From: Thermodesulfobacteriota bacterium
Lineage (GTDB): Bacteria; Desulfobacterota_D; UBA1144; Nemesobacterales; Mycalebacteriaceae
Length of the DNA: 64,000 nucleotides
Reading direction: 5' to 3'
NCBI GenBank assembly: GCA_965198945.1
Contig: CBDAQI010000001.1
Location: 1 to 64,000, forward strand
This document shows positions 38,888 through 63,595 of the stretch, piece after piece (the stretch's first letter is position 1; each line of letters begins with the position of its first letter). Both the position numbers and the translations under genes were made by a program. Under the pieces are notes generated by a model, which saw nothing but the letters and a program-made list of their open reading frames with translations, searched no databases and was not told the DNA's origin.

Positions 38888-39523
38888 TCAAAAATTGTAT
38901 TCCAGTTTTGTCCCCACGCTTACACTGATAACACTGTCAAGATCACTTCTACTCTCCAAGATTGAGTAAGAAAGCTGTGATTGCACACCTATTCTGGCTT
39001 TTTCCGATACGGAGACAGCAAATCCCAATTTGCCAATCAAGGGTATGGTAGTGCTCCTGCCAATATCGTCCGCAACATCGTAAAGATTTATTCCTGTTCC
39101 CGCTCCGAAAGAGAACTCTGCAGATTGATTCCCGGTCTTTACAAGAGCTATTACAGGCAGAAGCAAATGGTGAAAAGTACCACCGTCAAATTTAAGCCCA
39201 AAGTTTTGACCCAACGTACTGGCTTTGAATTCCAGATCATAAAAGCCAATTGTCCATCTTGGCGCAAACTCCACGGCTAAAGAACTTTCTTCGAAAAAAA
39301 CCCCGAACTTGGGCTCTATAAAGAAACCGTTTTCTTTTATTTCGAGATTGCTGATAGTTACTCCTGAAACTGTTATCTGGCCTTTTATGTCGGCATTCTG
39401 GTAGGAATAACCGGAACTTAAACTAAATTAGCGTTTTGAGTCTGCTGTCTGCGCATTGGAAACGCTGAAAGGGAAACCCGCTAATAATATGACAAAAACA
39501 AAGAGAATTGAAAATCTTCTCAT
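38888..39523 (-). pseudogene. Outer-membrane beta-barrel protein with an in-frame stop at codon 32
   Basis: SD GGAGGT, ATG at 39523, signal peptide MRRFSILFVFVILLAGFPFSVSNA, TAA at 39428-30. The same frame continues with amphipathic strands to the OMP-type C-terminus TKLEYNF (212 codons in total). Confidence 0.8.
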
Positions 39524-39702
39524 CTTAAACCTCCGTTAATTTGGACTTGCCCGGGATTTAAGGTGCCAGGCCTTGTCCACACTAAACGAAGGTTTTAAGT
39601 GTTCCCGCTTATTTCCCAGCGGAAGAAATCAGTCTTCCACCATAGCCGGGTCTTTTATTTAGCAGGGGACCCGACAAGGGTCTCCTCCGTCTAACGTGGA
39701 CA
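39524..39702 (-). ncRNA. Structured 5' leader with mutually exclusive anti-SD pairings (candidate translational switch)
   Basis: Segment 39575-39592 pairs 18/18 (four G-U) with 39684-39701, or alternatively about 22 bp with the RBS segment 39524-39546. Confidence 0.65.
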
Positions 39703-39706
39703 CAAA

Positions 39707-39736
39707 AATATAAACCAGAAAATACTGACAAGTCAA
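39707..39736 (-). promoter_or_regulatory. Sigma-70-type promoter of the structured leader
   Basis: TTGACT-18 nt-TATATT, placing +1 near 39701, the base of the long stem. Confidence 0.6.
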
Positions 39737-39783
39737 CTCTTATTGGAATCAACCGGAAAGGCCTTTCCCGGGCACCGAGACGG

Positions 39784-41025
39784 TCAGTTTCTCATAAAAC
39801 TGTAAAGGTGCTCTCCGATTTCGGAGTTTTTCAGTTTGTTGAGGGAGTGTTTTTCAATCTGCCTTATGCGCTCGCGGGTCAGGTCAAACATCTTTCCGAT
39901 CTCGTCAAGAGTGAAAGTGCCGCTCTCGTCTATTCCGAAGCGAAGTTTGATTATCTTTTCCTCACGCTCGTTCAGATGCTGTTTGAGCGCCTCACGCAGT
40001 TTCTCGGAAAGTGCGTTTTTGGCAATGACGAAATCGGGGATTGAATCCTCCTGATCGGGAACCGAATCAAGCAGAGTCGCATTTTTGCCCTCAAGAATTG
40101 GAGTGTCCAGGCTGATCGCGTCATTTGTGGAGTTCAGAATCCTCTTTACAACCTCAATCGTTATGCCGGATTCAAGAGATATTTCCTCCGGTGTCGGTTT
40201 TCTGTCAGTGGTTTTGGAGAGTTTGGCAACTGTCTTATAGACCCGGTTCGCCTGCTCAAGAAGGTAAACGGGAACCTTAATGGTTCTGGTCTGGCCTTGA
40301 AGAGCCCTGAGTATCGCCTGGTGTATCCACCACGAAGCATATGTTGAAAACTTGTATCCTTTTGTGTGGTCAAACCTCTCAACCGCTCTCATCAGACCGA
40401 GATTTCCTTCCTGAATCAAATCGGGCAGGGAAAGACCCCTGTTCGTATACCTTCTTGATATTGTTATGACAAGCCTCAGGTTTGCCTTAACAAATTTCTG
40501 CTTCATCCTTTGGGCTTTTCTCTCCTGCGAAATCCGCGCCAGTTTCCTGAAAACCTCTATTCTGCTTTCATATGCGTCTTTCCTCTCACTGCTTCTGGCC
40601 AGTTTTCTCTTTTTTTCCAGCCGTTCAATTTTTGAAACCACACCATATGCTTTGTCCGGCTTTCTGTATTTTATGTCCGTATCTTCGGCGGCGGCCTCGT
40701 ATTTCTTTATCTTGGATGAAATCTCAACTTCCTGCTTCGCCGTAAACAAATCCTCCGAAGACATATCCTTGAAATAAACATAGAGAAGCCTCATGTTTTC
40801 ATCGGGATTAAAATCTCCCTTTTTCTTCTTGATATTTGATTCTTCGGCTAAAACCTGAGCCGGCGGCTCGGAAAACTCATCTTCACGAGAAACAAGCGCG
40901 GCTTCTTCGCCGGATGCCGCACCAAGCCCGAACTCCTTTTCGCCCTCGGGAACGGAATAATTATCGTTCTCAGTCCCTTCCTCTTTCAAAAAGTCAACAC
41001 TCAGTTTTTTCTCTTTTTTAGCCAT
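39784..41025 (-). CDS. RNA polymerase sigma-70 factor, RpoD/RpoS-like without a canonical region 1.1
   Basis: ANLRLVI, DLIQEGNLGLMRAVERFD..KGYKFSTYASWWI, TLDEIG..FDLTRERIRQIE. Confidence 0.92.
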   Translation of the reverse strand: MAKKEKKLSVDFLKEEGTENDNYSVPEGEKEFGLGAASGEEAALVSREDEFSEPPAQVLAEESNIKKKKGDFNPDENMRLLYVYFKDMSSEDLFTAKQEVEISSKIKKYEAAAEDTDIKYRKPDKAYGVVSKIERLEKKRKLARSSERKDAYESRIEVFRKLARISQERKAQRMKQKFVKANLRLVITISRRYTNRGLSLPDLIQEGNLGLMRAVERFDHTKGYKFSTYASWWIHQAILRALQGQTRTIKVPVYLLEQANRVYKTVAKLSKTTDRKPTPEEISLESGITIEVVKRILNSTNDAISLDTPILEGKNATLLDSVPDQEDSIPDFVIAKNALSEKLREALKQHLNEREEKIIKLRFGIDESGTFTLDEIGKMFDLTRERIRQIEKHSLNKLKNSEIGEHLYSFMRN

Positions 41026-41085
41026 AGAGCAACCTCTCAACGAAGATCTGATTTACAAGGTAAAACAAGTTTCAATAGCCGAATA

Positions 41086-62224: not shown

Positions 62225-63595
62225 TCACATTTTATAAATTAGCATGAAACCATTGAATTGAACTGCTTCAGATACTGACTCATTTACTTCCGTATCTTTA
62301 TCATAGTAGTTAAACTGATGGTATGGTGATTCCAAATCAGTTTTCATCCAATGAAGTTTTTTGTTGTCAGTTCCAATTTTTTCAAAGTAATTTTTGGCAT
62401 ATTGCGGAAGAACGGCGCCATCAGAGTGGATCATCAATGTTGGTTTTTTGAGGTCTGCGGCCGTTGACATAGGATCCGCCGTTAACCAATCTTCCCAGGA
62501 GATTACGGCAAATTCTTTATTACTCCACTCCGGTACTGCACCACGATCAGAGTTGAGATAATAGTCATAAGGACCGTACATTGCGGCAGAGGGATCTTCG
62601 GTAGAAATAGTCGGGATATATTGAACTAGACCGTTTTCAGCATAATCTCTTTTTGCTTTTTTGGCCGCACTCAATTTTTCATTTACTCCTTCTTCTCCGC
62701 CGTAAAAGAGTTTAACGGCTTCGGCGTCATGAAGCCAAGCGGCAACTGTAACAACCGATTGGATTCTATTATCTTCTGCGGTTGCCATAAGAGTATACAT
62801 CCCACCTGCGCAAACCCCGAAGGCTCCAATCCTTGAATCATCTACCTCAGATACGGTTTCTAAGAAAGAAACGGCATTTTTAATGTCTTCCTTTTTAAGA
62901 CTCGGACTCTCATAATATCTCGGTTCTCCTTCACTTTCCCCATAATTCCTGAAGTCGAAAGCTAGCGTAATGAAGCCTTCGTTGGCAAGTTTTTCTGCAT
63001 ATAAACCCGCCATTTGTTCTTTTACCGTAGTCCAACTGCCCGACACTACAATAGCGGGATATTTTCTTGACTTGTCAAAGTTAGGGGGAAAAAACATATT
63101 GCCTACAAGATTAGCGCCTTCGCTATTAAAATTGATTTTCTTCATTTGTATATGTTTATCCTCCATTTTTATTTTATTCAGCAAACCAAAACCACGTGCA
63201 GCCACTATGGGATTGAATATTTCAACATACTCGGTAATCAAACCCTGATCATTGAATTTGAAAGTTGAATAGTATTGATTCTCATATAGTCGTGCGCTAT
63301 TCTTTAACCTGATTTTACCTTTATATTTAACGTAAACAATATTAGGATCTTCCATGGCATAAATTTCTTCAATTGGGAACTCCATTCCATCAAAATTGGA
63401 AAAGACGGGCGCCCAATAATTTCGTATTTCCTCTCTGCCAACTGCGCCGCCGGAAAATATCCCCGATGCGTAAGGATTGATTTGTTCAGCATTATGGGCG
63501 AATAGAGATGCCAAAACCTCCACATTTTCACTTTCCAACGCCTTGAAAAACTTTTTGGCCGTTTCTTTATTTTTAATCGATTTGTCTTTATTCAT
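62225..63595 (-). CDS. SnoaL/NTF2-like domain fused to an alpha/beta hydrolase
   Basis: N-terminal SnoaL-like domain (..YENQY...EYVEIFNP); C-terminal VKEQMAGLYA, FDFRNYGESEG, GVCAGG (Cys nucleophile elbow). AT-rich. Confidence 0.8.
   Translation of the reverse strand: MNKDKSIKNKETAKKFFKALESENVEVLASLFAHNAEQINPYASGIFSGGAVGREEIRNYWAPVFSNFDGMEFPIEEIYAMEDPNIVYVKYKGKIRLKNSARLYENQYYSTFKFNDQGLITEYVEIFNPIVAARGFGLLNKIKMEDKHIQMKKINFNSEGANLVGNMFFPPNFDKSRKYPAIVVSGSWTTVKEQMAGLYAEKLANEGFITLAFDFRNYGESEGEPRYYESPSLKKEDIKNAVSFLETVSEVDDSRIGAFGVCAGGMYTLMATAEDNRIQSVVTVAAWLHDAEAVKLFYGGEEGVNEKLSAAKKAKRDYAENGLVQYIPTISTEDPSAAMYGPYDYYLNSDRGAVPEWSNKEFAVISWEDWLTADPMSTAADLKKPTLMIHSDGAVLPQYAKNYFEKIGTDNKKLHWMKTDLESPYHQFNYYDKDTEVNESVSEAVQFNGFMLIYKM

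Follow-up and report, generated by a model that had tools for sequence, protein, structure and literature searches.

sRNA-Xcc1 (RF02221) entered Rfam in 2012, and annotations of bacterial and phage genomes list it as a matter of routine. The title of a 2011 paper by Chen et al. reportedly calls it trans-acting, and we know of no function established for it. Here we describe an RNA element that, judged from its sequence, is a divergent relative of sRNA-Xcc1, in a stretch of 64,000 nucleotides (nt) from a Thermodesulfobacteriota bacterium (assembly GCA_965198945.1, contig CBDAQI010000001.1, positions 1 to 64,000), hereafter the window. The element occupies the minus strand just upstream of a small open reading frame (ORF). 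A preliminary description, made from the letters of the window alone, had seen here an undescribed two-state RNA switch acting on the ribosome-binding site of an outer-membrane protein (OMP) gene. Our analysis makes it fairly probable that the element is the 5' leader of an mRNA, built on a divergent sRNA-Xcc1-type domain and working as a self-contained antisense lock on translation.

The passages available on Xanthomonas campestris 8004 describe sRNA-Xcc1 as an 88-nt RNA with mapped ends (PMC2996969). According to the excerpted text of a study on Xanthomonas integrons, sRNA-Xcc1 lies upstream of symE in the most widespread integron cassette of the genus, and its authors write that this suggests a different regulatory mechanism (bioRxiv 10.1101/2025.06.18.660453). 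Excerpts from other sources place it upstream of an ORF6N protein gene in APSE phages and give seven copies for Xylella fastidiosa Temecula1; in strain De Donno one copy adjoins C4 and IsrK RNAs. In the searchable literature, which leaves subscription papers and supplements outside, we found no description of sRNA-Xcc1 as a switchable leader; it is treated there as a small RNA gene, and no ligand for it is reported in the literature that we found.

The second system that bears on this locus is the c4 antisense RNA (RF01695) of phages P1 and P7. In phage P1 the immI operon is laid out as a1 b1 - c4 - a2 b2 - icd/ant, and the title of a 1995 paper by Hartmann et al. is said to call the c4 precursor a substrate of RNase P. 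The part of PMC8198154 concerned states that C4 antisense RNA blocks translation of the genes behind it. The motif name c4-a1b1 appears in a table of PMC2864571, and the relevant section of PMC12710915 treats RCCA-dependent cleavage of non-tRNA substrates.

No match was obtained in the window at the Rfam gathering threshold. A permissive Rfam scan gave a single weak match, to sRNA-Xcc1 (39675-39557; 17.7 bits, E 2.2, with the cut-off at 53 bits); a ROSE_2 match on the plus strand, at 15.6 bits against a cut-off of 65, was rejected as chance. Scores rise through a series of intermediates: a second copy in the same genome, on contig C6, reaches 27.8 bits, and among 20 loci of the lineage 12 match RF02221 at 28.5-35.8 bits. 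A search with the conserved words of the core in contigs of one genome per species returned at least 111 loci, those listed coming from Gamma- and Alphaproteobacteria, Xanthomonas, Stenotrophomonas, metagenome-assembled genomes (MAGs) labelled Thermodesulfobacteriota, Poribacteria, Latescibacterota, Gemmatimonadota and others; the same pattern also matched 22 viral contigs. When 20 such loci from other phyla were scored, 17 matched RF02221 at E<0.1 and four lay above the cut-off (78, 75.1, 65.1 and 58.8 bits). About 25 nt of the internal hairpin loop and the junction are conserved across phyla. By these sequence comparisons the core is a divergent relative of sRNA-Xcc1, below the threshold of a curated member, with a homology that runs through intermediates. 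The proposal of an undescribed element matching no riboswitch consensus thus holds as far as the Rfam threshold goes and fails for the core of about 90 nt, which connects to RF02221 through relatives at 58-78 bits. A match to a known Rfam family was among the refuting results listed in the preliminary description; for the window itself such a match exists only below the cut-off.

From 5' to 3' the leader consists of strand A, preB, strand B, hairpin H1, a linker, strand A', strand B', B'' and the start region (Table 1). Every structural element named in the preliminary description was recovered in place. The long helix A:A', proposed as uninterrupted over 18-19 base pairs (bp), has 18 pairs, four of them G-U and none mismatched, and was also found as an inverted repeat; the four G-U pairs are indeed its only departures from Watson-Crick pairing. 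The description had overlooked the closing helix of the sRNA-Xcc1 domain, B:B', which in the window is formed by GUCGGGUC (39675-39668) with GGCCUGGC (39572-39565). Hairpin H1 is composed of stem P3 (CCUGCU/AGCGGG), a conserved internal loop (AAAUAAAAGA / AAAUA), stem P4 and a tip hairpin (39641-39618). The hairpin GGUGGAAGA/UCUUCCGCU that had been noted within the insert is real and can be identified as a lineage-specific insertion in the tip of H1. The low score of the window is explained by this insertion, together with the conversion of the classical H2 segment of sRNA-Xcc1 into the long strand A'. H2 itself is a weak hairpin in the window (CUUAAA with UUUAG, including one U-U) that competes with A:A'; it is clearer in most relatives, with 4-7 pairs as read by eye from the sequences. 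A further suggestion, that GGGUC pairs with either of two GACCC words, stands for the first (39683-39678) and falls for the second, inside H1, which is not conserved outside the genus; that pairing was rejected since the partner words do not covary there.

Table 1. Features of the leader and its surroundings, in window coordinates.
Feature	Coordinates	Strand	Remarks
Upstream gene, sigma-70 family factor	39784..41040	-	Sigma70_r2/r3/r4 (Pfam); outside the element, 5' limit of the intergenic region
Sigma-70-type promoter-like site, TTGACT-18-TATATT	39707..39736	-	10/12 matches
Strand A, GUCCACGUUAGACGGAGG, 5'-terminal strand of the long helix	39684..39701	-	Pairs with A' (39701-39684 with 39592-39575); mimics the start region; contains SD-like GGAGG
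preB (AGACCC), local partner of strand B (hairpin P2)	39678..39683	-	Present in all predicted folds
Strand B, GUCGGGUCC, 5' strand of the sRNA-Xcc1 closing helix	39667..39675	-	U39676/G39675 form the U(-1)/G(+1) junction
Hairpin H1	39604..39666	-	Consensus structure with compensatory changes; loop words conserved across phyla
Linker, AACACUUAAAA	39593..39603	-	Unpaired when A:A' forms; 5' arm of H2; extends the start-region pairing
Strand A', CCUUCGUUUAGUGUGGAC, anti-SD/anti-start strand	39575..39592	-	Three competing partners: A, linker, start region
Strand B', GGCCUGGC (39572-39565), 3' strand of the closing helix	39562..39572	-	Also 5' arm of the GCCUGG/CCGGGC hairpin; ACC tail 39564-39562 follows
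B'' (CCGGGC), alternative partner of B'	39549..39554	-	Seen in predicted folds
Start region, GUCCAAAUUAACGGAGGUUUAAG (39546-39524), plus AUG	39521..39546	-	SD GGAGG 39534-39530, AUG 39523-39521; resembles strand A; pairs with linker + A'
Downstream ORF, signal peptide and putative small beta-barrel	38888..39523	-	In-frame TAA 39430-39428

An orthologous leader is present in two genomes of the same genus (G002 at 82% and G005 at 79% identity by BLAST), with similarity beginning exactly at the foot of the long helix, and BLAST also finds further partial copies before other genes. Among 41 relatives BLAST gave only four real matches, all within the genus, and the many matches at E 0.01-1 are chance matches of 16-30 nt. 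A covariance model of the core reaches further: at E<=0.01 it finds members in 16 of the 61 related genomes, all five other genomes of the genus among them, with up to five copies per genome. Of 23 distinct related leaders, 22 have a helix with an ungapped score of at least 11 between their 5' end and the sequence that follows the core.

Pairs in A:A' were counted by script, taking the 3' end of A' as the anchor point, after near-duplicates had been dropped (24 leaders reduced to 18); in a MAFFT alignment of the complete leaders strand A came out misaligned, and that alignment served only for B:B', P3 and P4. The full 14 of 14 ungapped pairs are found in 14 of the 18 distinct leaders of the lineage, and 13, 11, 10 and 10 in the remaining four. 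Non-cognate combinations of 5' and 3' strands, each in its best register, give a mean of 10.0 pairs and a maximum of 13 (2/306). Every position of the helix shows 3-6 types of pair across the 18 leaders, and a manual count from the pair table gives 35 G-U/U-G cells versus 2 A-C. The preliminary description had taken the G-U pairs of the window to indicate selection at the RNA level on the minus strand, and this excess bears it out. These pairs cluster halfway along the helix, where positions 9-11 of 14 account for 19 of the 35 cells (in the window, 39693-39691 with 39583-39585), which coincide with the place where the 3' strand can instead form H2 with the linker.

The closing helix is preserved as well. 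B:B' is 100% paired in 14 of 14 leaders of the lineage, with compensatory double changes at two pairs. Among 104 members from different phyla, the variable positions b7-b9 are paired in 92, 96 and 99, with 4-6 pair types each, and b10 in only 12. For preB:B, at least seven of eight pairs form in 46% of 106 cognate combinations versus 16% of non-cognate ones. When the comparison of cognate and non-cognate A:A' energies was extended to all phyla, GC-rich genomes blurred the contrast; it revealed a split between leaders with the long helix and a short form without it.

To assess the fit between the middle strand and the translation start, we took all members with enough flanking sequence and a callable Shine-Dalgarno (SD) sequence and start codon, computed the duplex energy of linker plus A' with the own start region, and ranked this value among those obtained with GC-matched start regions from other members. 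In long-helix leaders (n=60, several phyla) the own start region is among the best 5% for 32% and among the best 20% for 65% (Kolmogorov-Smirnov p 1e-11). The short form (n=19) behaves similarly, with 37% in the best 5% and 58% in the best 20% (p 8e-4). With H1, strand A or upstream DNA as control segments, the ranks are uniform. Strand A in turn resembles its own start region more than those of other members, falling in the best 5% in 23% of the 60 leaders; the idea that the 5' end mimics the ribosome-binding segment therefore extends to the family, as a trait that is not universal. Conservation with covariation holds for A:A', for B:B' and for the fit of A' to its own start, and the mutually exclusive partners first proposed for the middle strand of this one leader are a conserved design.

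The leader lies in a gap of 260 nt between a gene for a sigma-70 family factor and the small ORF (AUG 39523). The promoter that had been proposed corresponds to a promoter-like site, TTGACT-18-TATATT, and the predicted +1, G39701, six bases past the -10 element, is the foot of the long helix. Shuffled sequence yields 0.8 such promoter-like sites per region, so the site is weak taken alone; it is backed by the leaders of relatives, which have -10-like words 6-10 nt ahead of the first paired base, the same distance as in the window. Because this distance is kept, the 5' end of the RNA probably coincides with the helix foot throughout the relatives. Between B' and the ORF no terminator was found in the window.

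Computed folds place the leader close to a balance. The preliminary description had proposed that the 3' strand of the long helix could instead pair with the segment before the start codon, and the minimum-free-energy fold is this one: A' plus linker pairs with 39546-39524, burying the SD up to the AUG and enclosing the GCCUGG/CCGGGC hairpin (-75 kcal/mol, z -4.14, with 0 of 200 shuffles as good). When the RNA is folded from +1, the free fold, with the start region buried, has -72.5 kcal/mol, the fold with A:A' forced -70.2 and the fold with B:B' forced -58.0, so that in the energy model the long-helix and buried forms are nearly isoenergetic. Nascent RNAs of 127, 137 and 162 nt have A:A' as their minimum-free-energy fold, and the prediction flips to the buried form at 181 nt, once the start region is present. 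The linker, predicted to be unpaired in the long-helix state, could act as a toehold for the pairing with the start region. Two states are too few for this leader: B:B' and the small hairpin H2 also compete with the long helix, and by the predicted pairings at least three states are in competition, since three partners are available to A' and two to each of B and B'. In strand order A:A' crosses B:B'; the run of G-U pairs at mid-helix, where H2 competes, hints that the two helices may exclude each other instead of forming a pseudoknot.

An ON/OFF translational switch is a reasonable reading of this leader because of the mimicry, the exclusive and conserved partners and the near-isoenergetic folds. 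That the RNA toggles in the cell, and what makes it toggle, we infer. In the mechanism that we propose, the transcript would start at G39701 and fold into the long helix A:A', with the anti-start strand held. As long as A' is kept by A in the long helix, or by the linker in H2 within an Xcc1 fold closed by B:B', the ribosome site would be free and the leader ON; with A' on the start region, SD and AUG would be buried and the leader OFF. Loss of strand A, or a factor favouring another fold, would free A' and close the start region.

The trigger that we prefer is a cut at the U/G junction ahead of B, which would remove strand A, on the model of RNase P maturation of phage c4 RNA. The A' strand so freed would shut its own start region or, after 3' cleavage, act in trans. 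Processing of the 5' end, which the preliminary description had named together with other causes, is reasonably counted among the better candidate triggers, and cleavage at this particular junction is, by analogy with c4 and within our explanation of the leader, a tentative possibility. The sequences around the closing helix have features like those of RNase P substrates: a U precedes B in 19 of 23 leaders of the lineage, G is the first base of the closing helix, the closing helix has 9 bp, and the tail after B' reads R in 85, C in 84 and C in 78 of 106 members. The Rfam model, of 87 positions, starts at the first base of strand B, so the mapped 5' end of the Xanthomonas RNA presumably lies at this same point. 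The next candidate trigger would be binding of a ligand or protein to the junction and the conserved loop of H1.

Several points weigh against the antisense lock. A:A' is predicted to form first and to be very stable, so that without a factor the RNA might stay ON. Nearest-neighbour energies, which ignore tertiary contacts, put the Xcc1 fold 12-14 kcal/mol above the other two. About one third of the long-helix leaders match their own start region no better than average, the start codons behind these ranks were called by a simple rule, and related genomes are non-independent samples. The RCC tail lies in the loop of the B':B'' hairpin and may be conserved for other reasons. Finally, the ORF behind the leader is interrupted by a stop codon, and in this genome the switch may control nothing.

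The conserved core could also belong to an ON riboswitch for a metabolite or ion, in which a ligand on the junction and the H1 loop stabilises the Xcc1 fold and keeps A' off the start region. The 25 or so nucleotides of loop and junction conserved across phyla, the conserved three-strand expression platform with its nearly isoenergetic folds, and the placement of the family about 40 nt before a start codon would all suit such a device. We nevertheless think it unlikely. The association of downstream genes with one pathway that is expected of a riboswitch was not found, and these genes share no metabolic theme; a long helix of 14-23 bp far exceeds a ligand-gated P1; the fold competent for the ligand is, in the window, the one that lies 12-14 kcal/mol above the others; and the literature that we found reports no ligand.

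A leader of this kind might, on the other hand, be constitutive, with a 5' helix whose only tasks are to guard the end of the mRNA against decay and to insulate the ribosome site, and with an alternative pairing that is never used. The pairing of the 5' end from its first nucleotide in nearly all relatives and the prediction of A:A' as the co-transcriptional fold agree with this, and still we give the idea little credence. For a mere stabiliser, the specific and conserved match to the own start region would be superfluous, and the control segments of the same leaders rank uniformly; so would the conserved core and B:B'. Furthermore, the G-U run at positions 9-11 weakens the helix exactly where H2 competes.

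Across the family, an SD and start codon follow B' at a distance of 12-130 nt in 99 of 119 members, with a median of 40. The genes in this position include phage regulators and antirepressors, CI/XRE, SymE, DNA methyltransferases, lipoproteins, OMPs and pilins. Members of the short form precede genes for HTH_3/XRE, phage CI repressor, Bro-N and S24 peptidase proteins and one with a weak SymE match. A BLAST search with a Xanthomonas copy matched 103 phage records; phage Aaphi23 carries the motif between q and ant, 47 nt upstream of the latter, and in phage Smp131 it lies under an 'anti-repressor' annotation. The long-helix form was seen in MAGs labelled Thermodesulfobacteriota and in Alpha- and Gammaproteobacteria; culturable carriers include Brevundimonas aveniformis DSM 17977, Brevundimonas lenta DSM 23960 and Aliamphritea spongicola JCM 16668. 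Among the proteins encoded behind it Pfam recognises OMP_b-brl, DUF2085, a prepilin motif and, following a signal peptide, ankyrin repeats. By a crude rule, N-termini like signal peptides follow the leader in 36 of 65 long-helix members versus 0 of 23 short-form members (Fisher p 6e-7, with kin that are non-independent).

The placement of the family also bears on the view taken in the literature, in which sRNA-Xcc1 is the gene of a trans-acting small RNA and its position before an ORF would be incidental. In its favour are the stable 88-nt RNA of X. campestris, as described in the passages available (PMC2996969), and two copies in the genome of the window that lack an ORF and end in a terminator-like hairpin. 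As an account of the present element it is very unlikely, because in 99 of 119 members an SD and start codon follow on the same strand at a short fixed distance, each member is complementary to its own start region and not to a common target, and the window has no terminator between B' and the ORF. This view is compatible with the antisense lock, since an RNA released by processing could target the very mRNA that it came from, as in the case of c4. The reading as a mobile repeat resembling a miniature inverted-repeat transposable element, or as an inverted repeat at the DNA level, can practically be set aside: the arms are inverted repeats, several copies occur per genome and the family is present in phages and integron cassettes, yet BLAST finds only one copy in the own genome, the copies share only a core of about 60 nt with wholly different and unrelated arms, the 35 G-U versus 2 A-C pairs point to selection on the minus-strand RNA, and each copy has a promoter-like site and start region of its own.

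The ORF behind the leader reads MRRFSILFVFVILLAGFPFSVSNAQTADSKR, then TAA at codon 32, then 179 in-frame codons to a C-terminal ...KLEYNF. The stop stands in the context ..ADSKR*FSLSSGY.., and the orthologue in G002 has a Tyr codon there (..PKAYFGLSSGY..). Contigs from two runs of one sample are identical to the window, including the TAA. The ORF is probably a recent pseudogene, disabled by a nonsense mutation behind an intact leader; readthrough of the stop remains conceivable. A Pfam search assigned no family to the protein of the window, and the outer-membrane label is weak, a paralogue in G005 matching OMP_b-brl at E 0.0058, below the cut-off. In G005 two paralogues of the small barrel stand in tandem, with the leader between them, before the second (L167/L171, G005:C6:12916-14565), at 46% identity to the G002 protein.

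At least three further leader copies are present in the genome of the window. The copy on contig C6 precedes a gene for a membrane protein of 86 amino acids. Two orphan copies (G000:C13:32124-32206(+), L023/L042; G000:C10 ~63431-63560(-), L196) keep the long helix and B' and have no real ORF behind them (5-6 codons). They share a 3' module of about 100 nt that ends in a long hairpin and U tract, terminator-like, and contains CCUUCGUU, a word also present in the A' strand of the window. These copies may be stand-alone small RNAs.

In the genus and in two gammaproteobacterial MAGs, the leader recurs before a gene for an N4/N6-type DNA methyltransferase (N-terminus ..TGDNLP.MRG..DLVYLDPPF). The loci are L022 (G002:C1:52591-54915, 987-1400), L024 (G003:C1:557569-558809, 487-899), L034, L046, L100 and L134. 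The methyltransferase frame of G002 is interrupted after LDPFP* and picked up again in a different frame. In G003 the A' strand passes directly into the frame LLDPPFNS.., without the N-terminal residues (about 28), and B' is degenerate.

Taken together, the evidence points to the sRNA-Xcc1 family as a cis-acting leader with a conserved anti-start strand, whose long-helix form stands before exported-protein genes in several phyla, and an orphan annotation becomes a testable mechanism. The window itself adds a further and rather divergent member, and the gene behind it is disrupted in this genome. A broader and doubtful hypothesis is that Xcc1-type leaders are self-contained RNA switches across phyla, c4-like antisense RNAs domesticated as chromosomal leaders, with a long-clamp form specialised for exported-protein genes (lipoproteins, OMPs, pilins) and thrown either by an RNase P-type removal of the clamp or by an envelope-related ligand or protein on the core. 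If this were true, sRNA-Xcc1 would be misfiled as a small RNA gene and would rank among the most widespread uncharacterised cis-regulators of bacteria and phages.

Compared with sRNA-Xcc1 as described, the leader of the window shares the closing helix GUCGGGnnn / nnnCCCGRC of about 9 bp, the words AAUAnAAnACC and GGRAAUARRC of the H1 internal loop, and a place just upstream of a gene, which is symE, ORF6N or ant in the Xcc1 cases. For the small second hairpin that precedes the 3' strand of the closing helix in sRNA-Xcc1, the window offers only a weak candidate. It differs in the 26-nt tip hairpin inserted in H1 and in a 5' extension of 26 nt, made of A and preB, that pairs with the classical H2 segment and crosses the closing helix. 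Furthermore, the copy in the window is chromosomal, has a promoter-like site of its own and precedes an exported-protein gene.

The add adenine riboswitch and the ompA leader provide two further points of reference. Translational ON riboswitches with a three-strand platform, such as add, have the same choice of a 3' strand between a 5' strand and the SD/AUG, with states close in energy; the leader described here differs in its clamp helix of 18 bp and in controlled genes without a common metabolic theme. With 5' stem-loop stabilisers of the ompA type it has in common a 5' end paired from the first nucleotide and a position before an outer-membrane protein gene. In contrast to them, the 3' strand of its terminal helix also matches the start region, and a sensor-like conserved core lies inside the helix.

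In its logic the leader resembles c4, in which an antisense segment within a structured RNA has sense copies upstream and at the downstream ribosome site. The corresponding three sites are found here as strand A, strand A' and the start region, and the short-form Xcc1 members precede antirepressor genes as c4 does. The scaffold is another one. In 39400-39850 the C4 covariance model finds nothing at E up to 10, nor does it match any of 40 related loci. The antisense is one long strand of 18-25 nt instead of the two short loops of c4, and the target is an exported-protein gene instead of icd/ant. What is new is the long-helix form of the leader, in a family already known whose function is unexplained, with a design like that of the c4 lock.

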